In this document: positions 2,259 to 61,265 of the stretch, in pieces | Numbering within the stretch: the stretch's first letter is position 1 | Layout of the letters: every line of letters starts with the position of its first letter | NCBI GenBank assembly: GCA_964534625.1 | Contig: CAZHRF010000008.1 | Span: forward strand, 13,016 to 77,015 | Origin: an uncultured archaeon | GTDB lineage: Archaea > Asgardarchaeota > Heimdallarchaeia > Heimdallarchaeales > Heimdallarchaeaceae | Reading direction: 5' to 3' | Length of the DNA: 64,000 bases | The notes under the pieces: model-generated | What the model was told of the DNA's origin: nothing | Databases searched by the model: none | What the model saw: the letters and a program-made list of their open reading frames with translations, nothing else | Made by a program: the position numbers and the translations under genes

Positions 2259-3554
2259 ATGAAACTGTATCAGCAATTATCTGAAGGAGCATTTCCTATT
2301 TCTGTAAATAATCTTTCTCCCTCCTTGGAGTCTTGGGTGGAAGAAGCAGAACAAAGAATTTTCTCATTAGCTACAGGTAATAGACTGGGTCATATAGCTC
2401 CCAAAATAATGGCTATAGGATTAGCAAAGATCCTTTACTCAGCTAATGAGTTAGGATGTGACATTGACTCTGCAAAACCTTATATGTTATTTGCACCCGA
2501 TGGTACTATAACCTTTAATGGTTTACGTATCAAAAGATGTTTCTCGTATGGGGGAATACTCTCAGCTAGTTTTGGTTCATTAATAGCCACCAACAATAGT
2601 ATGCCTAATGGTTGTGGTTTCTCGCTCTTTGAACTAGATCCATCATATACTGATGAGCAATTACTCACCCATCTTCACAATATTGATGAAGAGATGAAAA
2701 AAGAGGATCTAAAAAACATAAGTAAAGGTAACCATTTTGCTTGTCTTTACGAAGTTAAAGACGCCATTACAGGTGAGGATACTGGCCGACGTATTGTAAT
2801 GATTCATTGTAGTGGAAAAGAATCACGTAAAGAAAAAATCTATCATACTGACTGGCTAAGTGAACTAGATGGCTATTATTCTGTTGAAACACCTCATGGA
2901 CAGATTTCTCTTTTAGAATCTGATGCAAAAGCCATGTATCTTGAAGAATTTCATGATTTTGATCAAACCAATCTTAACTATAAACATAAGCTTATGGCAG
3001 ATATGTTTGATGGTTTTGACTATTCATTATTAACAGAAATAACTCATCAAGGTCTTACAAAAGATGGTAAAAAACATCTAATTGGGAGCCAATCACATGA
3101 AGAAGGTATTGTGCCTATCGCCTTTAATGCTGAAGAAGGTTCAATTTTAGTGAAAATAAAAAAGAATTTGTCTAAAGAATTCATAGAAAGGTGGGAATAT
3201 AGAGAAACTATTCAAGAACTAGGTTATGAACAAATCCTTCAAAATAGTAATATTTCACCGCATGGGGGAGGTTATGAGCTCAAGTATCCTATTAAATCAT
3301 TCAATATGGTTCTAAATAAAGAAGGGCTGGAAACATTTACAATCCATGCAAAACCTAAAAACAACCAAAACCTTATCCTAACTGCCCATTCATTCAAAGA
3401 ATTAAGAGAACATATAGTGTATAGGAGAAAACTACCTTTAATGAAGGAAATATTCAAAGCAGAACTAGTAGAACATAAATATGATTTGAAACCACTTAAA
3501 CAGATCCACCCGCGCCCCAGAGAACATATATATGGGATAATAGATAAAAGATGA
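2259..3554 (+). CDS. Divergent RtcB-superfamily protein
   Basis: Collinear RtcB-like motifs: FAPDG..YGG, PNGCG, KGNHF, MIHCSG, THQG, SPHGGG, LKPL. Confidence 0.7.
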   Translation: MKLYQQLSEGAFPISVNNLSPSLESWVEEAEQRIFSLATGNRLGHIAPKIMAIGLAKILYSANELGCDIDSAKPYMLFAPDGTITFNGLRIKRCFSYGGILSASFGSLIATNNSMPNGCGFSLFELDPSYTDEQLLTHLHNIDEEMKKEDLKNISKGNHFACLYEVKDAITGEDTGRRIVMIHCSGKESRKEKIYHTDWLSELDGYYSVETPHGQISLLESDAKAMYLEEFHDFDQTNLNYKHKLMADMFDGFDYSLLTEITHQGLTKDGKKHLIGSQSHEEGIVPIAFNAEEGSILVKIKKNLSKEFIERWEYRETIQELGYEQILQNSNISPHGGGYELKYPIKSFNMVLNKEGLETFTIHAKPKNNQNLILTAHSFKELREHIVYRRKLPLMKEIFKAELVEHKYDLKPLKQIHPRPREHIYGIIDKR

Positions 3555-3636
3555 AAATAGATCTGTAAAGATAGCGACTTAATGAGTTTAGCAATATTTT
3601 CTTGAAATTTATTTTTTTTCTAATTCATTTAATTTT

Positions 3637-3743
3637 TTGTACTTCCGAAATTGTGCTCTACTTATATGATTTCCGCGATGGGATCGCTAAAATTCACTTT
3701 AAATGAATAGATTCCTTGGATATTTCTTAATTGGTGAGGACTA
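3637..3743 (+). mobile_element. MITE copy 2 (107 bp) with ATTTT 5-bp target-site duplication
   Basis: TTGTACTTCCGAAATTGTG ... CTTAATTGGTGAGGACTA. ATTTT at 3632-3636 and 3744-3748. Interior resembles the 43664 copy. Confidence 0.75.
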
Positions 3744-3787
3744 ATTTTGAAGATAGTTTTAAAAATTAGTGCTAGAAATTAACTAGT

Positions 3788-4678
3788 ATGACTGCAAAGA
3801 TAGGATTAATGGTTGACTCAGCTTGTGATTTACCAGATAAAATTTTAGAAAAGTATGACATGTATTTACTGCCTCTAGGGATAACATTTCCAGATGAAAA
3901 CAAAACATACAAACACCGAGTTGATATAACAGAAGAAGAATATAATAAAAAAATAGCCTCAGCAAAAGAACACCCCCACACGACCCAAGCAAATGGTTAT
4001 GACTTTGTTCAATTGCTTGAAAAAATTGAAAAGGATGGATATGCAAAAGTGTTTTATGTTTCCATAGGATCAGGTATTAGCGCTAATTATAGCACAGTAC
4101 AAGGCCATCTCAAAAGATATAAGAAAATGGGAGGAAAACTAGAAGTGCATATCTATGATTCACTTCAAGGCTCTATGGGAATCGGAATACAAGCAATTCG
4201 AGTTGCACTTTGGATACAAGAAGGTAAAAGTATCGATGAACTAGTTGAAGAATTAGACCTTTTCAGAAAGGAAAATATCAAAGTAACTTTTACAGTGAAA
4301 AGTCTGAAATATTTAATGCGCGGTGGGCGTGTGAGTAAGCTCAAATATGCTTTTGGTTCACTCTTACATATTAACCCTTGTATGGAAGTTTCCATTGATG
4401 AAGGTAAATTAGAAGTATTTACAAAATCTCGAGATTACTTAGAATCAGTAGAAGTAATTGTTGATAGAGCATATGAGTATTTTGAGAATAAAGATAATCT
4501 TGCTTGTTATATAGTAGAAGGCAATGCGACTGAAGGGGCAGAAAAAGCTAGAGAATATATAAAAACCAAATACCCCGATATTACGATTTATGATACATAC
4601 AAGTTAGGTGCGGTTATCTATACCCATTCAGGTCCAGGAACAGTAGAAATAGTTTTATTCAAAGACTTCAAACACTAA
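3788..4678 (+). CDS. DegV/FakB family fatty-acid-binding protein
   Basis: VDSACDL, PHTTQA, SGISANY, YDSLQGSMG, LKYLMRGGRV, THSGPG motifs. Confidence 0.92.
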   Translation: MTAKIGLMVDSACDLPDKILEKYDMYLLPLGITFPDENKTYKHRVDITEEEYNKKIASAKEHPHTTQANGYDFVQLLEKIEKDGYAKVFYVSIGSGISANYSTVQGHLKRYKKMGGKLEVHIYDSLQGSMGIGIQAIRVALWIQEGKSIDELVEELDLFRKENIKVTFTVKSLKYLMRGGRVSKLKYAFGSLLHINPCMEVSIDEGKLEVFTKSRDYLESVEVIVDRAYEYFENKDNLACYIVEGNATEGAEKAREYIKTKYPDITIYDTYKLGAVIYTHSGPGTVEIVLFKDFKH

Positions 4679-4846
4679 TCGGTATATAACTTCTTATTTT
4701 TCTTTTGTTTCTTAATCTCATTAACTTCTTTTCTCTTAATCTCATTTTCTTTAATATATCAAACCTCATACTTAAAATAGAGCATGTGACAAAGGTTAAT
4801 CCTTATAATCTTGTACGAGAACAATCAATGACAATGGAGAGATAAA

Positions 4847-5581
4847 ATGCATAGAGATATTTGGAATATTGCCCATAGAGGTTTTTCAGGAGCATACCCA
4901 GAGAATACGATGATAGCTTTTAAAAAAGCAATATTTAACCATGCAGATATAATAGAAATTGACTTACAATTAACAAAAGATAATATTATCGTCGCTTTCC
5001 ATGATAGAAAGGTAGATCGAATCTTGGCTGATCATAAAGGAAAACGTATTAAAGATTTTCATTACAAAGAGTTACAAAAATTAGATGCGGGAAGTTGGTT
5101 CGATTCATCTTTTGAAGGAATAAAAATCCCTTCTTTGCATGATATTATGACCGAATTGCCGTCTAATATCTCATTAATACTCGAAATTAAGGATACGAAT
5201 CATATTTTGATTGAAAAAATGCTTAACTTACTCGATGATTATAGTCGGACACTTGGTAAAGGTTACATTTCTGTAAGAGATATGGAAACTTATTCTATTG
5301 TTAAGGAGCAGAATCAGAAGTATAAAATAGGTGTTATGCAAAAGAAAAGAACACCCGTAGAAACAATAGATCTGATCAAACAACATGAGTTATCTATTAT
5401 TCAGATTAGGTGGCGTAAATGGTCAGAAGATGAATGGGAAGAACTCTTGAGGATAAACCCTGTTATTACTGCTTATTATGCTGATACTATCCCCGATTAT
5501 AAGTATCTAATAAACAAAGGAGGAAAGGGCATATTAACGAACTTCCCGAATAAACTTCACCAATTATTAAGGAAAAATTGA
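4847..5581 (+). CDS. Glycerophosphodiester phosphodiesterase (GDPD)
   Basis: IAHRG...PENT, EIDLQLTKD, FHD, LEIK, ILTNFP. Confidence 0.92.
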   Translation: MHRDIWNIAHRGFSGAYPENTMIAFKKAIFNHADIIEIDLQLTKDNIIVAFHDRKVDRILADHKGKRIKDFHYKELQKLDAGSWFDSSFEGIKIPSLHDIMTELPSNISLILEIKDTNHILIEKMLNLLDDYSRTLGKGYISVRDMETYSIVKEQNQKYKIGVMQKKRTPVETIDLIKQHELSIIQIRWRKWSEDEWEELLRINPVITAYYADTIPDYKYLINKGGKGILTNFPNKLHQLLRKN

Positions 5582-5717
5582 TCAATGAACACAATCACTA
5601 CTAATTAAATTTTTCATAGATAGAATAATTTTATTGTTCGGTTGTCGTTGATCCTTTACTTTTTAGCTTTCTCTCATCTCTCGCAAATTTTTTTAGACTG
5701 TTCTTAATAGCTAGTTT

Positions 5718-5966
5718 ATGACTATTTCAGCTTACATATTATTCACAACAAAATTAGGAAAAACACCTGAAGTAATTAGTAAGATAAGATCAATCACTCA
5801 ATTTCAATCGGTAGCCGTAGTTACAGGTGAGTGGGATATAGTTGCCAGAATACAAGTTAAAGATTTAGAAGAACTATATGAAATTACAAGCACTAAACTT
5901 CATCTGATTCAAGGAATAATAGAAACACACACAGCTGTAATTGAAAAAGAGTTAGCTAACGACTAA
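5718..5966 (+). CDS. Stand-alone Lrp/AsnC ligand-binding (RAM) domain protein
   Basis: 82 aa; AYILF...VVTGEWDIVARI...IQGIIETHT; no HTH. Confidence 0.9.
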   Translation: MTISAYILFTTKLGKTPEVISKIRSITQFQSVAVVTGEWDIVARIQVKDLEELYEITSTKLHLIQGIIETHTAVIEKELAND

Positions 5967-6004
5967 TAGTTATTAAAATTATTACATGAGGAGTTGCAAT
6001 CAAG

Positions 6005-7273
6005 ATGCCTTTCTATTCTGGTAAAAGTATGGGTAAATTTCGGAGAAAATTTACCTTCTATTTCTTGGGATTAACCTCTGGACTTCTTACTTCTATTTGG
6101 GTTATTCTTGATATGATAGCTAATCGAAGATATATCACTAATGTCTATCTTTTTGGCGCATTTGAAATGTTTGTAGGGCTTATTGTCTCGCTCCTTCTTG
6201 TTCTTGTTTTTCTAATTCCCATTCCTAATAAAAAGAAACCAAAAATGTTGATTGGGCATTTATTTGATCCTTCTTTCAATAAAATAGTACTGCCCAAAGA
6301 TAAACAAGCTCTCTATACTTTGTTAGCTGGGCTTTCTGCTGGTGGTAATACAATACTTTACTTTATCTTGATAGGTAAATATGATGCATCGGTAATCATG
6401 CCCTTTAGCCAGTTTGTATTAATCTACCTTTTAGCTGGAGATGCGATAACAGAAAGAGAGAAACCTGTTTTAATAGAAATACAATCAATCATCACAATTA
6501 CAATAGGCGTGATAATAGCTTCCATAACACAAGATGCGGCAATCTTCGATATGCAAGGATTCTTATTAGTTATAGGACCATTTAGCCTCTTTTCTGCTTT
6601 CTATACCTACTTCCAGAAAAAAGCACTTGCTGTAAAAGATGACAAAGGAAAGAAAATGGATACAGTTAATTTACGTTTATGGACATTGCTGATAATGGTT
6701 ATTATACAAATCTCATTCTCATTACCATTTATATCTTTCGAAGATTGGCAAGAATTACAGCTAAACTGGGTTTTCTCTTTGCCTTATATTATTTCCTCTA
6801 TGCTATTAGTTTATATTGGAGTTATATTTTATACTAGGGCTTTGAATATGGGTAAAATGAGCGTTGTTAAATCGCTTAATAGTATTAATGTTATCATGAC
6901 CATACCTTTAGCTGCTTTGGCTTCTTTTTGGTGGTCAGATGTCTTTCAGAATGAATTTTCTACAGTAAGCAGTACAATATTAAAGATGGTCGGGGCGATT
7001 CTTGTTCTAACTGGAGTAATTGCTCTAGCGATGTCTGAAGTACGAGGTATTTTCCTAGCTAAACTGCAACAAGGCGAACCTATTGAGCTTGAAAAATTGA
7101 CAAAAATGGCAGGTATAGACAAAGTTTCTTTTGTCACTGGTAGGTATGATTTGTTAATCTCTATTAAAACAAGGTCTATCGGTAAAACATATAATTTAAT
7201 TGAGAAGAATATATCTAAAATGCCATGGATAGCAGATATCACAACTTTGCAAGTAATGAAAGAATATAATTAA
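6005..7273 (+). CDS. EamA/DMT-family 10-TM transporter fused to a C-terminal Lrp/AsnC RAM domain
   Basis: About 10 hydrophobic helices in two repeats. C-terminal 'GIDKVSFVTGRYDLLISI...ISKMPWIADITT' is a RAM domain. Confidence 0.8.
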   Translation: MPFYSGKSMGKFRRKFTFYFLGLTSGLLTSIWVILDMIANRRYITNVYLFGAFEMFVGLIVSLLLVLVFLIPIPNKKKPKMLIGHLFDPSFNKIVLPKDKQALYTLLAGLSAGGNTILYFILIGKYDASVIMPFSQFVLIYLLAGDAITEREKPVLIEIQSIITITIGVIIASITQDAAIFDMQGFLLVIGPFSLFSAFYTYFQKKALAVKDDKGKKMDTVNLRLWTLLIMVIIQISFSLPFISFEDWQELQLNWVFSLPYIISSMLLVYIGVIFYTRALNMGKMSVVKSLNSINVIMTIPLAALASFWWSDVFQNEFSTVSSTILKMVGAILVLTGVIALAMSEVRGIFLAKLQQGEPIELEKLTKMAGIDKVSFVTGRYDLLISIKTRSIGKTYNLIEKNISKMPWIADITTLQVMKEYN

Positions 7274-7351
7274 ATTAACAGGTATCAGTCAAATGACATT
7301 GATTGACTTTTTTCTTCTTTTATCATGATTAAACTGATTTCGGTAATATTG

Positions 7352-8017
7352 TTAGTTATTCCCACTCATCATTTCATCCATATTTGTTTTAACATATTCT
7401 TTTAGCGCGGTAGGCAATTTCCCATATTTTCTTGTAGAACCATCCCAATATATTTTAACATTAGTATCTATGGTAAGGCTTTCAAGTTTTTGACAATTAG
7501 TTAGCGGTGTTACATTGAGCTCTGTTAAGTTATTACCTAGTACTTTGAATTCTTTAAGTTCAGGTAAATTCTCTAGCGGCGTAAGATCAAGTGTTTCCAG
7601 TAAATTGCCACTCACATTAATTTTTTGTAATGTCTTACAATTAGAAATGGGTTCTAAGTCTAATTTTTTGAGTTGATTCCTGTAAAGGTATAGTTCTTGT
7701 AAATTAGTTAGATTTGTGAGCGGTGTTAAGTCAACAGTACTGATTTTATTTGAAGAAAGATCAAGTATTCTCAAATTTGAGCATTTTTTAAGCGGCTTTA
7801 GGTCTATAAGATCTAATGCATTGAAATTAATAAAAATAGCTTGCAAGTTACATATTTTCTCATTAGAAAGCGGAGATAAATCGATATCTGTAATGAAACT
7901 AAATGAAAAATCTAGTGCTTCATTTATATCTGAGATAGAAAAAGAAATTTGTTTCTCATTGTTTTTCTTTGATTTACAATTGAAATTTAACTCCATGATA
8001 TACCTTAGATGCTTCAC
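7352..8017 (-). CDS. Leucine-rich repeat protein (paralogue of 1173-2069)
   Basis: Same IDLxPL LRR units and a similar C-terminal cap (IDTNVKIYW...LPTALK). The start may be the ATG at 7996. Confidence 0.88.
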   Translation of the reverse strand: MKHLRYIMELNFNCKSKKNNEKQISFSISDINEALDFSFSFITDIDLSPLSNEKICNLQAIFINFNALDLIDLKPLKKCSNLRILDLSSNKISTVDLTPLTNLTNLQELYLYRNQLKKLDLEPISNCKTLQKINVSGNLLETLDLTPLENLPELKEFKVLGNNLTELNVTPLTNCQKLESLTIDTNVKIYWDGSTRKYGKLPTALKEYVKTNMDEMMSGNN

Positions 8018-8290
8018 TTTAAATATTTAATGGAGAAAACAAGATATATTAATTCTAATCTTATCTCTTGGCACATAAAGTTCTATTTGTGGAAAATACT
8101 ACTTACTAGAAGTCATTCTTTACTTATCATTAAGAATTAAAGAAAAAGGGTTGACAAGAGAAAATTTAATTTCCTTTTTTTCTGGGGTATATCATCAACA
8201 ATTACACTATTGAATATATATTCAAACACCAGACCTACTTATCCAAATCTTTTTAATGCCCTCGGTGTCACGATTTTTGAAAAGGTGTTA

Positions 8291-9379
8291 TTGTATTTGA
8301 AACACAAAAACGTACTATTAATAGCAATTGTAACAATAATCCTCGTAGGAGGAGGAACTGCTTTATTGTTGGTTGATATTGGTCCTACAGGTACAAGGAC
8401 TGTAACTGATATGGCAGGAAGAAAAGTATCAATACCCTCTAAGGTTGAACGAGTCGTTGGAGTAGGTCCTGGTGCATTAAGGCTTTTAGTCTATTTAGAA
8501 GCAACTGATTTGGTGGTTGGTGTCGAAACAATTGAACATACCAGTAATAATACAAGACCCTATAATATCGCTCATCCAGGGTTATTAGATCTCCCTTTAA
8601 TTGGCCCCATGCATGGAGGAGATCCTGAGCTTATTGCAGCACAAACTCCCGATGTGATACTTTGGACTTATGCCCAAGCGGGAGAAGCTAATGATTTACA
8701 GACAAAGACCGGAATTCCTGTGATAGTGTTGGGTTATGGATCTTTAGAAGCCGAAAGAGACATATTTTATGCAGCATTAGAATTAACAGCTATTGTCCTT
8801 AATAAAGAAGAAAGAGCCTCATCTCTAATGAACTATTTTGATAATATGATTGCGGATTTAGATAACAGAACGAAAACGATTAGTAATCAAAACCGGCCAT
8901 CAGTTTATGTTGGAGGAGTTAGTTATAGAGGAGCCCATGGCTTAACATCCACTCGATCTATTTATGCCCCATTCAATTTTACTAATTCCTTGAATGTAGG
9001 AGCGAATTTATCAAGTGACCATACCTTTATTGATCCAGAACAACTAATTGAATGGGACCCTGATATAATTTTTGTAGATCAAGGAGGATTAAGTTTGGTT
9101 ATGCAAGATCTGCAAAATACCACCGCTTTCTATTCAACTCTTACTGCTGTTCAAACAGGTGAATTGTATTGTGTTTTGCCTTACAATTTCTACACTGGAA
9201 ATATGGGAACTATATTAGCTGATGCATATTATGTAGGTACAATACTTTATCCAGAGTATTTCACAGATATTGATCCCATTGAAAAAGCTGGAGAGATTTA
9301 CTCATTTCTAGTAGGATCTGATGTTTATGCTACCATGGCCCAAACATTTGGCGGCTTCTATAAGTTAAAGTTGGATTAA
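8291..9379 (+). CDS. Iron-complex/cobalamin-type ABC transporter substrate-binding protein, N-terminally anchored
   Basis: TVTDMAGRKVSIPSKVERVV, DPELIAAQTPDVI, DPEQLIEWDPDIIF. TTG start at 8291 or 8297 follows AAGGTG; the ORF-track start 8210 is probably too long. Confidence 0.88.
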   Translation: MYLKHKNVLLIAIVTIILVGGGTALLLVDIGPTGTRTVTDMAGRKVSIPSKVERVVGVGPGALRLLVYLEATDLVVGVETIEHTSNNTRPYNIAHPGLLDLPLIGPMHGGDPELIAAQTPDVILWTYAQAGEANDLQTKTGIPVIVLGYGSLEAERDIFYAALELTAIVLNKEERASSLMNYFDNMIADLDNRTKTISNQNRPSVYVGGVSYRGAHGLTSTRSIYAPFNFTNSLNVGANLSSDHTFIDPEQLIEWDPDIIFVDQGGLSLVMQDLQNTTAFYSTLTAVQTGELYCVLPYNFYTGNMGTILADAYYVGTILYPEYFTDIDPIEKAGEIYSFLVGSDVYATMAQTFGGFYKLKLD

Positions 9380-9380
9380 C

Positions 9381-10454
9381 ATGATCCGAGATAAAGAAAC
9401 TATAACTTCATCATATGATCAATATGTAAATAAGAAAGTATGGTTTATTGCCATTTCGATAAGTCTCTTGATTTTTTTCATTTTTTTAGGGTTAACGTTT
9501 GGTTCTGCTGATATATCCTTAGGTGAAATAATCAAGGCTTTTTTTAAAAATGGAGATCATGTTCATGAACAAATTATCTGGAAAATAAGATTACCCAGAG
9601 TTTTATCCGCATCTCTTGCTGGTATGGCTTTGGCTGTTGTCGGGGTATCTATGCAAAGTATTCTTAGGAACCCCTTGGGCTCTCCTTTCACCCTTGGTTT
9701 GTCAAATGCTGCTGCTTTTGGTGCTTCATTTGCTGTTATCATTTTAGGCGCAGGATCTCAACATAGTAGTTCTTCTGATGCAGTACTAATTAATAACCCT
9801 TATCTTATTACTCTATCTGCTTTTTTTTGGTGTGCAGTAGCAACTTATTGTGTCTTATTAATAATCAAATTAAAACTTGCAGATCCGAAAACAATGATTC
9901 TCATGGGTATTATAATGGGTTCACTTTTTTCAGCAGGAACAACTGCATTACAATATTTTGCAGATGACGTACAATTAGCTTCAATAGTTTTTTGGACTTT
10001 TGGCGATTTAAGCCGATCAGATTGGAAAAATTTCCTTATTCTCTTACTTGTAGTTTTACCTGGTTCTTTATACTTAATTTCTAATAGCTGGAATTATGCC
10101 ACTTTGAACTCAGGTGATGAAACTGCAATGAGTTTAGGAGTAGATACAGAAAAAATTAGGATACGAGGAATGTTAGTTTCTTCTCTTTTAACAGCAACAG
10201 TAGTGGCTTTTTATGGTATTATAGGCTTTGTAGGCTTAGTTGTTCCACATATTGTACGACGTTTTGTAGGTAATGATGAAAGGTACTTGATACCTGCAAC
10301 AACTGTATTTGGTGGATTATTTCTCTTGGTAGCTGATACAGTAGCTAGGACAATTATTGCGCCAATAGTCTTACCGGTAGGCATTTTAACATCGTTTCTA
10401 GGTGCACCATTGTTCATGTGGCTTTTAATGAAAGAAAAAGGGAGGAACCTATAA
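9381..10454 (+). CDS. FecCD/BtuC family ABC permease
   Basis: IRLPRVL, QSILRNPLGSPFTLG, GIIGFVGLVVPHIVR, LPVGILTSFLGAP. Confidence 0.95.
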   Translation: MIRDKETITSSYDQYVNKKVWFIAISISLLIFFIFLGLTFGSADISLGEIIKAFFKNGDHVHEQIIWKIRLPRVLSASLAGMALAVVGVSMQSILRNPLGSPFTLGLSNAAAFGASFAVIILGAGSQHSSSSDAVLINNPYLITLSAFFWCAVATYCVLLIIKLKLADPKTMILMGIIMGSLFSAGTTALQYFADDVQLASIVFWTFGDLSRSDWKNFLILLLVVLPGSLYLISNSWNYATLNSGDETAMSLGVDTEKIRIRGMLVSSLLTATVVAFYGIIGFVGLVVPHIVRRFVGNDERYLIPATTVFGGLFLLVADTVARTIIAPIVLPVGILTSFLGAPLFMWLLMKEKGRNL

Positions 10455-10455
10455 G

Positions 10456-11259
10456 ATGATTTTGGACATAAGTGGTTTAAAATTTGCTTATAATGGAAAA
10501 CCAGTCTTGAATGATCTAAATTTTAAGATTAACGAAGGAGAAATGGTGGCTATTCTTGGTCCCAATGGATCTGGAAAAAGTACACTTTTGAAGTGCATAG
10601 ATTACATTTTACGTCCTAAGGAAGGTAAAGTTGTGATTAATAATAAAGAATTATCAACTTACAGCAGGAATGATTTAGCTAAAGAAATAGCCTATGTTCC
10701 ACAATCGGAAGGTACACCGTTTCCTTCTACTGTGTACGATACAATATTATTGGGAAGAAAACCACATATTGAATGGAAGCCATTAACAAAGGATAAAGAG
10801 ATAGTTTCTTCAATTCTTGATAAACTAGAATTAACTGCTTTTACTTTGAGGAAATTAAATCAGTTAAGTGGTGGTCAAAGACAAAAAGTTTACATTGGAA
10901 GAGCTCTAGCTCAAAAAACGCCTATACTACTTTTAGATGAACCAACAGCCAATTTGGATCCCAAATATCAGCTAGAAGTTATGAACCTATTAAAACAACA
11001 AGCTGAGAAAGGGGTGAGTATATTGATAGCCATACACGATATTAATCTTGCAGTAAAATATTGTGACAAGATTATTCTACTAAAAGAAGGTAAAATTTAT
11101 GCACATGGTGGAATTGAAGTAATTACAAAAAAGAATCTTGAAGAAATATATGAAGTTGATCTAGAGATACTAAAACATAATGGCAGTATTATAGTAATAC
11201 CCGAAAAACCAAGAAACCACATTAAGAAGGAAAGTAAAGCAATAATTAAATCCAAATAA
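10456..11259 (+). CDS. Iron-complex/cobalamin ABC ATPase
   Basis: GPNGSGKST, LSGGQRQ, LLDEPTANLD, H-loop IHD. Confidence 0.95.
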   Translation: MILDISGLKFAYNGKPVLNDLNFKINEGEMVAILGPNGSGKSTLLKCIDYILRPKEGKVVINNKELSTYSRNDLAKEIAYVPQSEGTPFPSTVYDTILLGRKPHIEWKPLTKDKEIVSSILDKLELTAFTLRKLNQLSGGQRQKVYIGRALAQKTPILLLDEPTANLDPKYQLEVMNLLKQQAEKGVSILIAIHDINLAVKYCDKIILLKEGKIYAHGGIEVITKKNLEEIYEVDLEILKHNGSIIVIPEKPRNHIKKESKAIIKSK

Positions 11260-11362
11260 TATCTCCTTCTCCTTCTTCAGCATAGTCTAATTTATTGAAA
11301 GGCTGAATTTTTCTTGATATATTTATTCTTTCAATACAGAATTAAATGGCTTATATTCGATG

Positions 11363-11377
11363 AACGAAATATTCGTT
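11363..11377. promoter_or_regulatory. Palindrome AACGAA-ATA-TTCGTT upstream of the TauE gene
   Basis: Perfect 6-bp arms about 75 bp before the start; a candidate operator. Confidence 0.3.
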
Positions 11378-11451
11378 GTTAATTCGAATTTGCCTGTTTG
11401 ATTTAACACAAAATATAATAATCTGAAGTCAAACGCCTATAATGAAAATTT

Positions 11452-12369
11452 ATGATAAACAATGTGCTTCAGTTTATTATCCAATTAAATCTAATTATTA
11501 TAGGCTTAGCTTTTCTATTTCAATTCATGAATGGTACTTTAGGTATGGGTTTTGGCTCTCTCTCTCCCATTCTTATTGCATGGGGATTTGCTCCATTAGA
11601 GGTAATCCCCGCAATTATTTTTACTAGTGGCATTTTAGGTATAATATCTGGCATATTGCATCTGATTTTTCGTAATATAGATTTCTGGTATGGTACTAAG
11701 AACATTAAAATTGCAGGTTTATTCTTTATTGCTGGTATAATAGCTATATTTATTGGGGTTTTAGTTGCGATAAATATTTCTGCCATAGTTTTGAAAACTT
11801 ATATTGGTTCGCTTACTCTATTAATGGGCTTTATCCTAATTTTTAATGATATCCTTAAAAATCGTAATAAAGAATATTTTATGAAACTCCAACAATACTT
11901 CAATAGCTTTGAGAAGAAAATTTTAGAAAAAAAGAAAAAGAGTTTTTATGATCCACATGAGGGTATAGAAATGCACAAAGAAGTATCTTGGCTAAGACTT
12001 GGTGCATTAGCATCCTTGGCATCCTTTAATAAAGGTATGACTGGTAGTGGATATGGTCCTGTTCTATCAGCTGGACAAGTCATTTCTGGAATGGATAGTA
12101 AAAGAGCTGTTGGTATTACTGTTCTTGTTGAAGGTTTAGTCAGTTCTGTGGGTTTTATTGTTTATTATTTTTTAAATCAAACCACGACCATTAATTGGAC
12201 TTTAACAATTTCAATTCTCGCTGGTGGTTTGGTAGCAGCACCAATCTCTGCGTTAATAGTAAAAAAAACACATCCTGGTAATCTCAAATATGCAATGGGG
12301 ATTTTATGTGCATTAATAGGCTTATTCTCTATTATCGATACGATTATAGATTTTACAATACTCATGTAA
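11452..12369 (+). CDS. TauE/SafE (TSUP) family membrane transporter
   Basis: GTLGMGFG and GMTGSGYGP glycine motifs in two repeats; about 8 TM; charged loop insertion. Confidence 0.85.
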   Translation: MINNVLQFIIQLNLIIIGLAFLFQFMNGTLGMGFGSLSPILIAWGFAPLEVIPAIIFTSGILGIISGILHLIFRNIDFWYGTKNIKIAGLFFIAGIIAIFIGVLVAINISAIVLKTYIGSLTLLMGFILIFNDILKNRNKEYFMKLQQYFNSFEKKILEKKKKSFYDPHEGIEMHKEVSWLRLGALASLASFNKGMTGSGYGPVLSAGQVISGMDSKRAVGITVLVEGLVSSVGFIVYYFLNQTTTINWTLTISILAGGLVAAPISALIVKKTHPGNLKYAMGILCALIGLFSIIDTIIDFTILM

Positions 12370-12420: not shown

Positions 12421-13185
12421 TCACCAAATAAATGGTATGAGCGCCTTTCTTCTTTCTGGATATTCTTCAAATTTATTGTTGTACCATTTATGGTGTTGAA
12501 CAGCTCTTGGAGCTAAATTTGCAAAAGTCCATATGAAAAATATTAATCCTGCTAATGACCATGTTAATAGTGCCCATCCTGCCCATTCGATTATTTCTCC
12601 TAAATAGTTGGGGCAAGAAACATATTCAAACATACCTCCTTTTGGTATTTTATACCCTTTCTCACCGGGCTTACGTAGATTTCTTAAGATGAAATCCGCG
12701 TTTCTATTAATACTATATCCTCCATAAAAAACTACTAAACCTACAATAAAGCGTATATCCAAAAACCATTGTAAAGTATAGATATGCTCATCAGCAAAAT
12801 AGAATAAATACCTCCCTTGCAGATATGTATTACATGTATTGAATAACATACCCATGATCATAACGCTTACTGGAAAGTTTTTCTTTTCATACAATTTTAT
12901 CGGATAAATAAATGCTCTATGTATATAATGACTTTGCCATATGATCAAAAAAACTATTAACACGGGATTTTTTTGTTTATCACCAATTACATAGAAAACT
13001 ATCATAAGAATTGACGCAGGAGTTTCCATAATTATCCATCCTAGCCTATTAGAAATAGATGTTCCCCATCCTTTACGTTTATACCTCCCATAAGGAGCTG
13101 CAACATAGAGAAGAAAGACAAAGCTAATTGATGCTACAACGATGAAAGAGAAGGCTATAAGATTATAAAATTCTAGTTCTATCAT
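12421..13185 (-). CDS. Steroid 5-alpha-reductase (SRD5A/DET2)-like membrane enoyl reductase
   Basis: APYGRY, WIIMETPA, HYIHRA, YKIPKGGMFEYVSCPNYLGEIIEW, ANLAPRAVQHHKWY, RKALIPF. ATG at 13185. Confidence 0.92.
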   Translation of the reverse strand: MIELEFYNLIAFSFIVVASISFVFLLYVAAPYGRYKRKGWGTSISNRLGWIIMETPASILMIVFYVIGDKQKNPVLIVFLIIWQSHYIHRAFIYPIKLYEKKNFPVSVMIMGMLFNTCNTYLQGRYLFYFADEHIYTLQWFLDIRFIVGLVVFYGGYSINRNADFILRNLRKPGEKGYKIPKGGMFEYVSCPNYLGEIIEWAGWALLTWSLAGLIFFIWTFANLAPRAVQHHKWYNNKFEEYPERRKALIPFIW

Positions 13186-57856: not shown

Positions 57857-59326
57857 TTATATTCTCCTTCTATTTTTCATATCAACATCTATACGCAAGG
57901 GATAAGGATTATTATCATAATTTGATTTCATACTGTGTGCGAGTAGTGCAATAACTTTATGGTGCTGTTCTTTTTGCAAGATATCGATTATATTACTATT
58001 CTTAATTGTTTTTGTATCATACTTACCTGTTATAAACTCTGGTGAATTTAACAATACTTCGTGGAAATGTTTATTTGTCATTACTCCTTCTACCTTAAAA
58101 TCGCTTAAAGCTGTTAAAAGACGTTTTCTACATTGTTCTCTATTAACATCCCACGCTAATATTTTTGCTATTAAAGGATCAAATGTAGATGATACATGAT
58201 ATCCTTCATATATAGCTGTATCGGTTCTGATACCCGCACTAGAAGGAAGAATAACCGAGTTGATTGTTCCGGGTGAAGGATGAAAATTATCTAAAGGATT
58301 TTCTGTATTAATCCTTACTTCGATTGCATGACCTCTTAGTTTGATATCATCTTGTGAAAAAGATAGAGTTTGACCCAAAGCCACATGAAACTGTTCTAGG
58401 ATAAGGTCGTAATTTGTGACAAGTTCAGTAACTCCTATTTCATTTTGCATACGTGTATTAACTTCGATAAAATAGAATTCGCCATCATGATATAAGAATT
58501 CTACAGTACCAGCATTTTCATAATTGTATGTTCGAATAAATTCTACTACTAAAGTTCCTAATTCCTCTCGCATTTTTTCGTTCAATGCTGGTGAAGGAGA
58601 CTCTTCTAGTAGTTTTTGATGCCTTCTCTGAATAGAGCACTCCCTTTCACCCAAATGAACGATATTACCATACTTATCAGCAAAGAATTGAATCTCAATA
58701 TGTTTAGGATGATCAAGATATTTCTCTATATAAATTTCAGAGCTGGATTGAACAGAATCTAATAATTCTGTAACATGGCAATACGCTTCTTCCATTTTGG
58801 ATGGAGATTCTACATTTAAAATGCCTACCCCTCCTCCTCCATAGTTGGCTTTTAAGATAACAGGGTACCCTATTTGTTCTGCTATGTCTTTGGCGTGTGA
58901 AAAATTTTTGATGAGTGTAGTTGAACCCGGTATGATTTTTAAATTGGCTTCTTGAGCCTTTTTTCTAGCCATTAATTTATGTCCAAGATTAGCAATAGCA
59001 GTTGCTGAGGGTCCAATGAATTTATAGCCTTTTTTTGAAACTTGTTCTGCAAAGTTAGGATTTTCAGAGAGAAACCCATACCCAGGATAAACAGCATCTG
59101 CTCCGTTTTCTTGACATGCTTGTAAGATTTTAGGGATATTTAAATAGGTTTTCGCAAGATTTCCATCTCCCAAATAAAAACTATCATCTGCTAATTTTAC
59201 ATGTCGATCATTTTCCTCACCTTTAGAGAAGATGGCAACTGTTTTAAGATCAAGCATGTTAGCAGCATAAATGGCTCTAAGGGCAATTTCTCCTCTGTTG
59301 GCAATTAAAACTTTGCTGAAATCCAT
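57857..59326 (-). CDS. accC: Biotin carboxylase
   Basis: KVLIANRGEIALR, YPGYGFLSEN, ERECSIQRRHQKLLEESPS, AGTVEF, EVNTR. Confidence 0.93.
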   Translation of the reverse strand: MDFSKVLIANRGEIALRAIYAANMLDLKTVAIFSKGEENDRHVKLADDSFYLGDGNLAKTYLNIPKILQACQENGADAVYPGYGFLSENPNFAEQVSKKGYKFIGPSATAIANLGHKLMARKKAQEANLKIIPGSTTLIKNFSHAKDIAEQIGYPVILKANYGGGGVGILNVESPSKMEEAYCHVTELLDSVQSSSEIYIEKYLDHPKHIEIQFFADKYGNIVHLGERECSIQRRHQKLLEESPSPALNEKMREELGTLVVEFIRTYNYENAGTVEFLYHDGEFYFIEVNTRMQNEIGVTELVTNYDLILEQFHVALGQTLSFSQDDIKLRGHAIEVRINTENPLDNFHPSPGTINSVILPSSAGIRTDTAIYEGYHVSSTFDPLIAKILAWDVNREQCRKRLLTALSDFKVEGVMTNKHFHEVLLNSPEFITGKYDTKTIKNSNIIDILQKEQHHKVIALLAHSMKSNYDNNPYPLRIDVDMKNRRRI

Positions 59327-59654
59327 TATGTGTCTCCTGCTGAGATTAGTAAACCTATATCAATATCATTAATATGAGTATATTCTTTCTTGTAAGGAAA
59401 AAGAATGTTCTATATACTGAATGAATGAGGTTAGAGAAAGATAAAAATAAGAATTTATGTATTTATCGATGTGGAGATAATAATATCTAGAAAAAAGATA
59501 TTGTTTATTTTGAATAGAAATAATGAAATCAATAAAGGAAATATCTTTATCTGTTTCTTGCTTGACTTTCACAAACATCTGCATGATACGCTAATTTCTC
59601 TTTTTTCACTTCCCAGAGCAAATTTTTAATAATCTTCTTTGTTTCCTATATTTG

Positions 59655-61265
59655 ATGAGAGAGAATAGACAAGAAGAACCATCTAAGTATAGTTCAGATG
59701 AAATAACTACAGAAGATATCACGTTTAATCAAGAACTAATTAAAGAATTGACAAATAAAAAAATAGCCGCTAAGGTGGGAAATGAAAAGAAAATTTCCAA
59801 ACAACATAACCAAGGTAAGTTTACGGCGAGAAAAAGAATTGAAATGCTTTTAGATCCTCAAAGTTTTTCTGAAATAGGGCTTTTTGTTAAACATCAGTGT
59901 ACGGATTTTGAAATGGAAAAAAAGAGAATGCTTACCGATGGGGTTATTACTGGTCACGGAACTATTAATGGGCGACTAGTTTATGTTTATGCTCAAGACT
60001 TTACAATCATTGGTGGAACAGTTGGCAAAGCACATGCAAATAAAATTAAAAATATAATCAAAGAAGCTCTAATGGTCGGTGCACCTGTAATTGGACTTAT
60101 AGATACAGGAGGAGCGCGTATACAAGAGGGAGTAAACTCTCTAGCAGGCTATGGCAGTATTTTCCAAGAGATGACTAAAGCATCAGGCGTTATTCCTCAG
60201 ATATCGGCCATTTTAGGTCCCTCTGCTGGAGGAGGAGTGTATACTTCAGCTCTGTCTGATTTTGTTTTTATGACTGAAAATATTACCCATGCATTTATTA
60301 CTGGACCAAGGGTTTTGAAGAGCGTAACAGGGAGAGAGATCTCTTTAGATAAACTAGGGGGTGCATATGTACATAGTCATAAATCGGGAGTAGCACATTT
60401 TGTTCATTCTACGGAAGAAGAAACATTACACGCCATACGCGAGTTAATTGACTATTTACCTTCTGACTCGTCTAATGAACCGCCCATAGTTGAAACAAAA
60501 GACATACCTCATAGAAAATGTCCAAAATTAGATGGAATTATACCTGCAGATCCAAAAGAAACCTATGACATGAAAAAGATTCTTGTTGAGATAGTTGATA
60601 GAGAAAGTTTTTTCGAAGTGCAAGCAGATTGGGCTGCTAATTTGGTGACAGCTTTTGCCAAATTGAATGGATACACTATAGGGTTAGTAGCCAATCAATC
60701 TATAACCTTAGCTGGAGCACTAGATATAGATGCGTCAGATAAAGCTTCTCGCTTCATTAGGTTTTGTGATGCCTTTAATATCCCAATTGTGACATTTGTA
60801 GATGTACCTGGCTTTTTACCTGGAGTAGACCAAGAACACAATGGAATTATCAGGCATGGAGCTAAAATACTCTATGCTTATGCTGAAGCAACAGTTCCCA
60901 AGATATCTGTTATTACACGGAAAGCATATGGTGGGGCGTATATTTGTATGTCATCAAAAGATTTAGGGGGAGATAGAAACTATGCATGGCCAACAGCAGA
61001 GATTGCAGTGATGGGAATAGATGGCGCAATGAGTATTTTATACAAGAAAGAAAGTGACAAGGAAGAAGATAGTACTGATTTAGATGCATTTAAAGAAGAA
61101 TTCAAGAAAAAGTTTATGAGTCCCTATAAAGCAGCTGAATATGGATATATAGATGATATAATACAACCAGCTCATACAAGAATCTTTCTGATCAATGAAC
61201 TATGGACATTATTAGCAAAAAAGGTAGAACCAATAGATAAGAAACATGGAAACATACCACTATAG
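59655..61265 (+). CDS. Acyl-CoA carboxylase carboxyltransferase (PccB/MmdA-type)
   Basis: DGVITGHG, QDFTIIGG, GGARIQEGV, FCDAFNIP, DVPGFLPG, RKAYGGAY, KKHGNIPL. Confidence 0.95.
   Translation: MRENRQEEPSKYSSDEITTEDITFNQELIKELTNKKIAAKVGNEKKISKQHNQGKFTARKRIEMLLDPQSFSEIGLFVKHQCTDFEMEKKRMLTDGVITGHGTINGRLVYVYAQDFTIIGGTVGKAHANKIKNIIKEALMVGAPVIGLIDTGGARIQEGVNSLAGYGSIFQEMTKASGVIPQISAILGPSAGGGVYTSALSDFVFMTENITHAFITGPRVLKSVTGREISLDKLGGAYVHSHKSGVAHFVHSTEEETLHAIRELIDYLPSDSSNEPPIVETKDIPHRKCPKLDGIIPADPKETYDMKKILVEIVDRESFFEVQADWAANLVTAFAKLNGYTIGLVANQSITLAGALDIDASDKASRFIRFCDAFNIPIVTFVDVPGFLPGVDQEHNGIIRHGAKILYAYAEATVPKISVITRKAYGGAYICMSSKDLGGDRNYAWPTAEIAVMGIDGAMSILYKKESDKEEDSTDLDAFKEEFKKKFMSPYKAAEYGYIDDIIQPAHTRIFLINELWTLLAKKVEPIDKKHGNIPL

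Follow-up and report, generated by a model that had tools for sequence, protein, structure and literature searches.

What does an archaeon that already possesses a normal RNA-joining enzyme RtcB do with a second, very distant RtcB-like protein? The question is raised by an open reading frame at 2259-3554 (+) of the window, the 64,000-nucleotide stretch analysed here (positions 13,016 to 77,015 of contig CAZHRF010000008.1, assembly GCA_964534625.1), which comes from an uncultured member of the Heimdallarchaeaceae whose source is microbial mats. The frame starts with ATG and encodes 431 residues (protein P0001). The first-pass annotation, made from the sequence alone, described it as a divergent RtcB-fold enzyme that keeps the catalytic His and Cys residues, has lost basic RNA-contact residues and may still form a His-NMP intermediate while acting on something other than standard RNA ends. 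Its observation is confirmed: all nine motifs that it listed are present, as FAPDGT (residues 79-84) with SYGG (96-99), PNGCG (116-120), GNHF (157-160), IHCSGK (182-187), THQG (262-265), HLIGS (273-277), SPHGGGY (333-339), EHIVYR (384-389) and LKPLKQIH (410-417).

Homology to RtcB is supported only at the profile level. As a single sequence, the protein returned only noise from Pfam, NCBIfam and a phmmer search of the PDB; it gave no hit to the RtcB family PF01139 even at E<=10, and thus fails the Pfam gathering threshold of 27 bits. Sequence searches found 97 homologues, 76 of them close (42-87% identity), and 90 cluster representatives; the protein belongs to an unnamed family of proteins of about 400-445 residues. 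The window protein carries all 25 invariant columns of a 45-sequence family alignment (A1), and 22 of these 45 members give sub-threshold hits to PF01139, with a best E of 1.8e-4. A local profile-profile alignment (hhalign) of A1 with 29 canonical Heimdall RtcBs gives a probability of 85.9% and an E of 5.2e-6, collinear over 328 columns (25-415 of A1 against 36-484 of RtcB); in global mode the same program gave only a meaningless end overlap. The distant-clade alignment A2 gives 84.2%, the Heimdall-only alignment 78.7% and the shallow 15-sequence alignment A3 13.8%, while seven scrambled controls, reversed and five column-shuffled alignments among them, give 0.1-0.6%. Of the 10 PDB hits of the A1 profile at E up to 10, nine are RtcB, with a best E of 2.9e-4, and 24-25 of the 30 nearest Atlas clusters carry RtcB; a short Myxococcota RtcB-like cluster was also seen in this comparison. 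The RtcB fold of the protein is predicted from profile comparison alone.

The conservation of individual residues was examined in a MAFFT alignment of 156 family members, 74 of a Heimdall clade and 82 of a distant clade, the two clades being split by a 36% identity cut-off to the window protein rather than by a tree. C119, N158, H159, H183, H263 and H335, the counterparts or candidate counterparts of RtcB active-site residues, are invariant or nearly so. P80-D81 (2496-2501, +) align with P64-D65 of the PDGH motif of Pyrococcus horikoshii RtcB, the Pro being present in 74/74 and 76/82 members and the Asp in 74/74 and 77/82. In PNGCG (2604-2618, +), C119 corresponds to the bridging metal ligand Cys98 and is found in 74/74 and 80/82 members. 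In GNHF (2727-2738, +), N158, found in 74/74 and 80/82, corresponds to Asn202, which holds the 5'-OH nucleophile in RtcB, and H159 to the Mn2 ligand His203. In IHCSGK (2802-2819, +), H183 corresponds to the Mn1 ligand His234, and in PHGGGY (334-339; 3258-3275, +), H335 corresponds to the nucleotidyl-accepting His404. H159, H183, H263 and H335 are each present in 74/74 and 82/82 members. The correspondences to Cys98, Asn202, His203, His234 and His404 come from profile-profile alignment. H263 of THQG (3042-3053, +) is the candidate equivalent of the Mn1 ligand His329; it is not paired with His329 in the full-length alignments and is paired with the AHN motif only in a segment-restricted alignment that is not significant on its own (probability 0.6%), so this correspondence rests mainly on motif order and invariance. 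The roles of the RtcB residues are taken from PMC8051266 and PMC9745838.

The residues that read GTP and hold RNA have fared differently. At the position of the Mn2 ligand Asp95, three residues before the Cys, stands Pro (P116), in 72/74 and 71/82 members, and the next residue is Asn (N117), in 74/74 and 74/82. C162 lies at the position of the guanine reader Glu206, which is Gly, Ala or Cys in 73 of 74 Heimdall-clade members. H417, in the C-terminal segment DLKPLKQIHP (409-418; 3483-3512, +) that aligns with the RtcB C-terminus, lies at the position of the guanine-O6 reader Lys480 (PMC9745838), which is Tyr or His in 71 of 74. Y339 lies at the position of Arg408, which is Tyr in 74/74 and 72/82 members (the roles of Arg341 and Arg345 of E. 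coli RtcB are reportedly addressed by Maughan & Shuman 2016), and HRKG has become HLIG. The spacing between the Cys and GNHF is 40 residues against 105 in canonical RtcB, and the roughly 65 missing residues belong to the segment that holds the 5'-OH strand contacts Arg190 and Gln194 in P. horikoshii RtcB; the whole protein is about 55 residues shorter than RtcB. The calculated pI is 6.1 (family median 6.0) against 8.7 for canonical RtcB. The first-pass annotation was thus mostly right about the changed residues. However, the third 5'-OH strand contact, Arg238, which it counted as changed, is K187 in this protein and still basic; the position is His in 60 of 74 Heimdall-clade members.

The genome also encodes a canonical RtcB. 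A PF01139 scan of the whole genome finds only one gene, on contig C10 (58734-60044), with archease at 60363-60755 of the same contig, about 320 bp away; RtcA is encoded on contig C1. As the first-pass annotation had remarked, no archease, RtcA or TROVE gene is adjacent to the RtcB-like gene: none is on the contig of the window, and TROVE was not found in this 89.8%-complete genome. The RtcB-like gene is therefore an extra paralog, and the condition set beforehand as refuting the divergent reading, that it be the only rtcB, is not fulfilled. Canonical RtcB is present in 60 of 61 relatives, including all 33 that carry the RtcB-like gene. The idea that distant-clade members are the only tRNA ligases of their hosts, which arose because two of the first five genomes lacked PF01139, is rejected, since 36 of all 41 distant-clade genomes have a canonical RtcB and the five without are 1.0-1.6 Mb MAGs of unknown completeness.

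The main clue to function is a partner gene 1.3 kb downstream that the first-pass annotation did not notice. It encodes a GDPD-family phosphodiesterase of 244 residues (4847-5581, +; PF03009, E 3e-29), which clusters with the GDPD partner of the RtcB-like gene in related genomes and is 46% identical (E 3.6e-66) to the partner in one of them, G007. A GDPD ortholog (E<=1e-20) is found in 32 of the 33 relatives positive for the RtcB-like gene and in 0 of the 28 negative ones. The ortholog of a second partner, a tandem metallophosphoesterase (>=41% identity), is found in 26 of 33 positive genomes, and among the 28 negative genomes there is only a 69-residue remnant. Within one Heimdallarchaeial genus (g4), the counts for the two partners are 8/8 and 7/8 in positive genomes against 0/17 in negative ones, and the three genes form a single, dispensable presence/absence cassette. 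In four of five negative genomes of this genus that were examined the flanking genes abut, while the fifth holds a 950-bp scar with the N-terminus of the metallophosphoesterase and the C-terminus of the GDPD but no remnant of the RtcB-like gene. Related genomes are not independent, so that the co-occurrence may reflect few gain or loss events, and the cut-offs used to call orthologs were chosen after seeing the tables. In the window the cassette is loosened. A DegV-family gene (3788-4678, +; PF02645, E 2e-62), which is not part of the conserved module, separates the RtcB-like gene from the GDPD gene; of the 21 loci compared, only the window has a gene between these two, and the gap is <=400 bp in 20 of the 33 positive genomes. 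The metallophosphoesterase ortholog (64% identity) lies on contig C51 (8165-9733), between a BON-domain gene and an ABC-ATPase gene, and the gene upstream of the RtcB-like gene is an LRR gene. Co-transcription therefore cannot be argued here.

The patchy presence within one genus, with clean empty sites and a deletion scar, might suggest a conflict or defence system, anti-phage or anti-toxin, in which the RtcB-like protein repairs or modifies a target after attack, much as bacterial RtcB2-PrfH repairs colicin-damaged rRNA. The metallophosphoesterase hits the PADLOC candidate PDC-S10 (E 4e-17) and, far below their cut-offs, NCBIfam anti-phage phosphoesterase models. However, these hits are generic domain similarity, no PADLOC hit was obtained for the RtcB-like protein (P0001 and P0092) or for either GDPD tested, and no integrase, transposase or defence-island neighbours were noticed in the loci compared. 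This reading is very unlikely.

A different kind of evidence comes from another branch of the family. Two proteins, P0132 and P0186 (743 and 745 residues, 68% identical), fuse a PF01636 kinase with intact catalytic motifs, of the small-molecule (APH/choline-kinase-like) type and not a P-loop polynucleotide kinase, to an RtcB-like domain that keeps all core residues. These fusions are a new observation. The P0132 gene sits in a co-oriented, metabolite-type cluster with two HydE/PylB-like radical-SAM enzymes, an ATP-grasp enzyme, a HisC/CobD-like PLP enzyme, an SDR and a HAD phosphatase. The fusion is known from only two sequences in a distant branch, 22% identical to the window protein, and need not share its substrate; a phmmer search with the fused kinase halves found no APH-like gene among the neighbours in 62 loci. 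Distant-clade members are followed on the same strand by an AP_endonuc_2 TIM-barrel gene (13 of 41 loci) or an HD hydrolase gene (5 of 41).

These contexts can also be read in favour of a non-canonical nucleic-acid end-repair enzyme that seals or caps RNA or DNA 3'-phosphate or cyclic-phosphate ends, with the partners acting as end-healing enzymes. The GDPD, metallophosphoesterase, AP_endonuc_2 (the superfamily of endonuclease IV) and HD families all include nucleic-acid end-processing enzymes. The best NCBIfam hits of the neighbour d2 are deoxyribonuclease IV models (E 1.5e-17, far below their cut-offs), and the metallophosphoesterase weakly resembles the 2',3'-cyclic nucleotide phosphodiesterase SpdA. 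Altiarchaeotal copies lie beside a GCD14/TrmI-like tRNA methyltransferase gene and PolB. The full catalytic set, including Asn158, is retained, and most distant-clade members keep the guanine readers, with Glu or Asp at the Glu206 position in 47 of 82 and Lys at the Lys480 position in 59 of 82. Against this stand the replacement of Arg408 and Arg238, the missing segment with Arg190 and Gln194, the acidic to neutral pI, the presence of canonical RtcB in nearly all carrier genomes, the type and setting of the fused kinase, and the fact that the GDPD and DegV neighbours are lipid or small-molecule families. End repair is therefore possible but unlikely. Nucleotidylation of a protein or of itself as a regulatory modification, or a catalytically silent structural role, seems more doubtful still. 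Histidine nucleotidylation is the first step of RtcB and needs no nucleic acid, and the loss of substrate-binding arginines is compatible with a changed acceptor, but the near invariance of Asn158 and of the proposed metal sites across 156 archaeal and bacterial sequences argues for full multi-step catalysis, and the linkage is to hydrolases of phosphate esters rather than to signalling proteins.

The interpretation given in the first-pass annotation is supported in each part that could be examined. The best explanation is that the gene encodes an intact member of an undescribed, deeply diverged branch of the RtcB superfamily, with RtcB-type chemistry on a non-RNA phosphomonoester; it is held with no more than even confidence. 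What the analysis itself establishes is the profile-level homology over nearly the whole length, the conservation of the Cys, four His and one Asn, the loss of guanine-reading and strand-binding residues in the Heimdall clade, the co-inheritance with the two phosphoesterases, and the kinase fusion in another branch, whereas the fold, the geometry of the metal site, catalysis and the substrate are inferred, function resting on gene association only. In the inferred mechanism, His335 would attack an NTP, in this clade probably not read as GTP, at a two-metal site formed by C119, H159, H183 and H263, with N117 in place of the Asp, to give enzyme-His-NMP. The NMP would then be passed to a phosphomonoester on a non-RNA substrate, most likely a small polyol-, glycerol- or sugar-phosphate type compound, and the resulting NDP-activated ester would be either released or attacked by a hydroxyl to form a new phosphodiester. 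The GDPD and the metallophosphoesterase would supply or recycle the phosphomonoester or alcohol, so that the three would form a cut-and-rejoin or headgroup-exchange module.

A bolder form of this reading, somewhat less likely than not, is that the family is the first RtcB-type enzyme to work on metabolites rather than nucleic acids, activating a small phosphomonoester, such as glycerol phosphate released by the GDPD or the product of the fused kinase in other lineages, as an NDP-ester that is then joined to a hydroxyl or a phosphate. That would be a new, fold-independent route to phosphodiester or NDP-activated compounds in Asgard archaea, Altiarchaeota, Hadarchaeota, Atribacterota and others, and RtcB chemistry, which has been described only for nucleic-acid ligation (His-GMP, activation of the 3'-phosphate, then attack by a 5'-OH), would have a second, metabolic use. 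Literature searches, supplements excluded, found no paper on this family, which is widespread (about 90 clusters at 50% identity in at least six archaeal and four bacterial lineages). Its genes are currently labelled 'hypothetical' or, in one case seen here, 'RtcB family protein', and should not be counted as tRNA ligases. The cassette offers biochemists a defined set of three proteins, and its presence/absence polymorphism within one genus allows comparative metabolomics or genomics.

Comparison with known systems helps to place the family. RtcB itself (P. horikoshii PH1602, PDB 1uc2, 4dwq and 7lfq; E. coli RtcB; human RTCB) shares the order of the PD, CG, GNHF, H-x-S/G, H and H-G-x-G motifs. 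The paralogs M. xanthus RtcB1-3 and E. coli RtcB2-PrfH are likewise extra copies beside a housekeeping RtcB with specialised substrates, but they are ordinary PF01139 members and reportedly act on RNA or DNA ends. The chemical logic of the second and third RtcB steps on a small molecule is matched by the assembly of the cobamide nucleotide loop, in which CobU/CobY guanylyltransferase activates a phosphomonoester as a GDP-ester (through a His-GMP enzyme in CobU) and a hydroxyl then displaces GMP to make a phosphodiester, with CobS; the folds are unrelated. A cobamide link is rejected for this window, since no cobamide genes were found linked and the nearby binding protein is of the iron/siderophore type, and the CbiR similarity of the distant-clade neighbour is weak (56.5 bits against a cut-off of 105). 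Among the remaining neighbours, a recurring protein of 190-204 residues is a Rab-like GTPase, probably a chance neighbour, and a 277-residue ORF lies at 10-843 of the window. The gene after the metallophosphoesterase paralog on contig C16 is of the HAD sugar-phosphatase type.

Sequence analysis shows an ATG-started open reading frame of 431 amino acids at 2259-3554 on the + strand, and all nine motifs that the first-pass annotation had listed (APDG..YGG, PNGCG, GNHF, IHCSGK, THQG, HLIGS, SPHGGGY, EHIVYR and LKPLKQIH) are present in its translation and in the order claimed. The observation made there therefore held. The window (contig C8, 13016-77015) has a G+C content of 30-37% throughout and belongs to a 3.37-Mb genome of 120 contigs that is 89.8% complete, the DNA of which is found in four microbial-mat metagenome runs of one study. 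Homologues of the protein carry Heimdallarchaeota, Heimdallarchaeaceae, Kariarchaeaceae and Hodarchaeales names.

As a single sequence, the protein hits neither Pfam RtcB, NCBIfam nor any PDB chain, and a six-frame scan of the genome with PF01139 finds only another gene. It nevertheless belongs to a well-populated family, with 97 proteins in an index of 5.8 billion proteins (76 at 42-87% identity and about 20 at 24-32%) and 90 cluster representatives in an exhaustive HMMER search. A 45-sequence alignment of the family used as a profile finds 10 PDB sequences at E up to 10, of which nine are RtcB, with Pyrococcus horikoshii PH1602 at E 2.9e-4 through the GNHF and His-x-Ser region. Scanned one by one, 22 of the 45 members give sub-threshold PF01139 hits, with a best E of 1.8e-4. 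Alignment of this profile by hhalign against 29 canonical Heimdallarchaeial RtcBs taken from relatives' genomes gives a probability of 85.9% and E 5.2e-6 over 328 aligned columns, with family positions 25-415 against RtcB 36-484. A 60-sequence alignment of the distant clade alone gives 84.2% and the Heimdall clade alone 78.7%, but a shallow 15-sequence alignment gives only 13.8%, while the reversed RtcB alignment and five column shuffles give 0.1-0.6%. A language-model atlas of proteins places the sequence next to unnamed archaeal clusters and then next to clusters that carry RtcB (24-25 of 30 neighbours). Homology to RtcB is thus considered well supported, with high confidence, although an RtcB fold is inferred from sequence alone.

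In RtcB, Mn1 is bound by Cys98, His234 and His329 and Mn2 by Asp95, Cys98 and His203, His404 carries GMP, Asn202 holds the 5'-OH and the GMP phosphate, Arg238, Arg190 and Gln194 hold the 5'-OH strand, and Glu206 and Lys480 read guanine (PMC8051266, PMC9745838). The numbering was checked on the alignment of the genome's own canonical RtcB to 7lfq. Among 156 family members (74 of the Heimdall clade and 82 of the distant clade), C119 (Cys98) and N158 (Asn202) are each conserved in 74/74 and 80/82, respectively, and H159 (His203), H183 (His234), H263 (candidate for His329) and H335 (His404) are each conserved in 74/74 and 82/82. The pairing of H263 with His329 is not given by the full-length profile alignments and appears only in a segment-restricted alignment that has no significance by itself, and so it is an inference from order and invariance. 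At the Asp95 position (P116), Pro is found in 72/74 and 71/82, and the next residue, N117, is conserved in 74/74 and 74/82. The Arg408 position is Tyr (Y339) in 74/74 and 72/82. The Arg238 position, K187 in the present protein, is His in 60/74 and Lys in 12/74 of the Heimdall clade, and Pro in 27/82, Ser in 18/82 and Lys in 6/82 of the distant clade. A protein-modifying or an inactive role for the family is regarded as very unlikely.

The two guanine readers separate the clades. At the Glu206 position the distant clade has E/D in 47 of 82 while the Heimdall clade has G/A/C in 73 of 74, and at the Lys480 position the distant clade has K in 59 of 82 while the Heimdall clade has Y/H in 71 of 74. 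The protein studied here has C162 and H417 at these two positions. The spacing between the catalytic residues shows where the protein is shorter, since from the Cys to GNHF there are 40 residues against 105 in canonical RtcB, and this is the segment that carries Arg190 and Gln194. The other spacings differ by 4-14 residues (20 of the 29 canonical sequences matched all five anchors). The family is acidic to neutral, with a pI of 6.1 for this protein and a median of 6.0, against 8.7 for the canonical RtcBs. Residues conserved in the family but not explained by what is known of RtcB include K57, R90, Y97, Y227, R242 (K in this protein) and Y388-R389.

The gene is an extra paralog. The genome encodes a canonical RtcB (488-aa ORF, PF01139 E 2e-169, 568 bits to P. 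horikoshii RtcB) on contig C10 at 58734-60044 (-), which forms a divergent pair with archease at 60363-60755 (+), about 320 bp away, and this pair is the housekeeping ligase system of the genome. RtcA is on contig C1 and no TROVE gene was found in the genome. The first-pass annotation had named, as a condition that would count against its reading, that this gene be the only rtcB and show normal tRNA ligase activity; the first part of this does not hold. Canonical RtcB is found in 60 of 61 Heimdallarchaeial relatives, including all 33 with the RtcB-like gene, and in 36 of 41 genomes that carry the distant clade, so nowhere does this family look like the sole tRNA ligase.

In the window, the genes upstream of the RtcB-like gene encode a 277-aa protein without Pfam hits (10-843) and a leucine-rich-repeat protein of 298 aa (1173-2069, +). 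Downstream come DegV, a GDPD phosphodiesterase, a stand-alone 82-aa Lrp/AsnC ligand-binding-domain protein (5718-5966, +) and an EamA-type transporter of 422 aa with the same ligand-binding domain fused to its C-terminus (6005-7273, +), which may be a ligand-gated exporter. A comparison with 20 loci of relatives with 6-kb flanks showed that the RtcB-like gene is followed by a GDPD of roughly 247 aa in 11 of 21 loci, counting the window, and accompanied by a tandem calcineurin-type metallophosphoesterase of roughly 528 aa in 9 loci. Only the window has a gene, DegV, between the RtcB-like and GDPD genes.

The three genes are co-inherited across the 61 relatives. A strong RtcB-like match (E<=1e-60) is present in 33 genomes, the weaker matches being canonical RtcBs hit through the GNHF region. 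The GDPD ortholog (E<=1e-20) is present in 32 of these 33 and in none of the other 28. The metallophosphoesterase ortholog (>=41% identity) is present in 26 of the 33, whereas six genomes of family f5 have only 35-36%-identical relatives and one genome (G023, 72% complete) has none; among the other 28 genomes it is present only as a 69-residue remnant. These cut-offs were chosen after the tables had been seen, and related genomes are not independent. A 33%-identical paralog of the metallophosphoesterase is almost universal, and in the present genome it lies on contig C16 and is followed by a HAD sugar-phosphate-phosphatase-like gene (284-1795 and 1931-2689). Inside genus g4, 8 of 25 genomes have the RtcB-like gene, all 8 have the GDPD, 7 have the metallophosphoesterase, and none of the 17 others has either.

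The cassette behaves as a single presence/absence unit. In two genomes (G009 and G021) the three genes lie between two flanking genes (c17 and c18), and in four negative genomes (G010, G012, G014 and G017) those flanking genes are about 115-195 bp apart. In a fifth negative genome (G015, contig C65, within the 3500-7000 segment at about 1700-2500) the 950-bp gap is a deletion scar in which the N-terminus of the metallophosphoesterase (residues 24-117) abuts the C-terminus of the GDPD (residues 181-245, with 3 TAG stops in a longer match), and nothing of the RtcB-like gene remains. The three genes are therefore one dispensable unit. They stay co-present where they are not adjacent, in families f4 and f5 and in the present genome, where the cassette is loosened and the metallophosphoesterase (64% identity) is on contig C51 between a BON-domain gene and an ABC ATPase gene. 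A defence role is thought to be very improbable.

A scan of species-representative genomes found 41 loci of the distant clade, from Altiarchaeota, Hydrothermarchaeales, Hadarchaeota, Methanofastidiosia, Geothermarchaeales, Jordarchaeum, Atribacterota, Armatimonadia, Clostridia and Chloroflexota. The gene is followed on the same strand by an AP_endonuc_2 TIM-barrel protein of roughly 275 aa in 13 loci, which is weakly like deoxyribonuclease IV, the cobamide phosphodiesterase CbiR and sugar epimerases, all far below their cut-offs, and by an HD hydrolase in 5 loci. In 4 loci from Hadarchaeota and a Chloroflexota bacterium it sits with an ATP-grasp-like protein, and an AstE/AspA-like deacylase is there too in 3 of the 4 (not in the 2.5-kb locus L084). 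A GCD14-like methyltransferase (14 loci), PolB and TBP are syntenic in Altiarchaeota. The recurring theme is a hydrolase of phosphate esters of varying fold. Every partner family also has nucleic-acid members and most of the distant clade still has the guanine readers. An unusual nucleic-acid end repair enzyme with healing partners is the main rival to the mechanism proposed below, possible but unlikely.

A fusion was found in one cluster representative (P0132, 743 aa) and in a second protein 68% identical to it (P0186, 745 aa). Both carry an N-terminal PF01636 domain of the APH/choline-kinase type (E 3e-20) with its HxD..N and DxD motifs, and a C-terminal RtcB-like domain that keeps PD, YG, PNGCG, GNHF, His, HQ and PHG-G-Y. 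The P0132 gene was recovered on a 16.6-kb metagenome contig (Ga0315275_10002515), where it is the fifth gene of a co-oriented run at 3518-11751 comprising two HydE/PylB-like radical-SAM enzymes, an ATP-grasp enzyme similar to LysX and RimK, a HisC/CobD-like PLP enzyme, the fusion, an SDR and a HAD hydrolase. A second HAD phosphatase and a GT4 glycosyltransferase lie on the other strand. This looks like a metabolite-building cluster in which a hydroxyl is phosphorylated and the phosphate is then handled by the RtcB-like domain. However, it is one branch of the family, 22% identical to the window protein, and thus a hint and not proof for the Heimdall clade.

The analysis itself establishes the homology, the conserved catalytic set, the lost RNA and GTP readers, the paralogy, the co-inheritance of the cassette and the kinase fusion, whereas the fold, the catalytic activity and the substrate are inferences from sequence and gene association. 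In the mechanism proposed, the enzyme would form His335-NMP from an NTP at a two-metal centre, transfer NMP to a phosphomonoester that is not an RNA end, and then release the NDP-ester or let a hydroxyl displace NMP. The GDPD would make the phosphomonoester or alcohol by cutting a glycerophosphodiester, and the tandem metallophosphoesterase would remove or recycle a phosphate or pyrophosphate ester. This mechanism is judged about as likely as not. The interpretation of the first-pass annotation, that a divergent RtcB relative may still form a His-NMP intermediate but act on something other than standard RNA ends, is supported to this extent. The closest known family is RtcB, but the protein fails several of its defining features and should be described as an RtcB-superfamily enzyme and not as an RtcB ligase. 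Literature searches, which did not extend to supplementary material, found no paper on the family or its cassette, and source names for the homologues are 'hypothetical protein' except one 'RtcB family protein'.

Further along the window, a second leucine-rich-repeat protein of 221 aa (7352-8017, -) flanks the region on its other side, followed by an iron/siderophore-type periplasmic binding protein (8210-9379, +; PDB 2etv-like, E 3e-98). The latter is followed by ORFs of 357 and 267 aa, the second of which clusters with proteins of other loci, and these may, as a guess, be an ABC-transporter permease and ATPase. A Rab-like small GTPase (Thorarchaeota Rab 7ezb, E 4e-39) recurs within a few genes of RtcB-like genes in 5 of 21 loci (8892-9506 of locus L045 in genome G007, and loci L059-L062), which is probably chance given how many such GTPases Asgard genomes carry. 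In relatives G001, G004, G007, G017, G027, G033 and G035, and also in genomes G065, G070, G093, G096 and G097, canonical RtcB sits in open frames of about 930-1020 aa and the PF01139 match is split into positions 1-50 and 44/49-426, roughly 1.5 kb apart. This looks like a large intein inserted near residue 50 of RtcB, and it recurs in archaeal and Atribacterota genomes.
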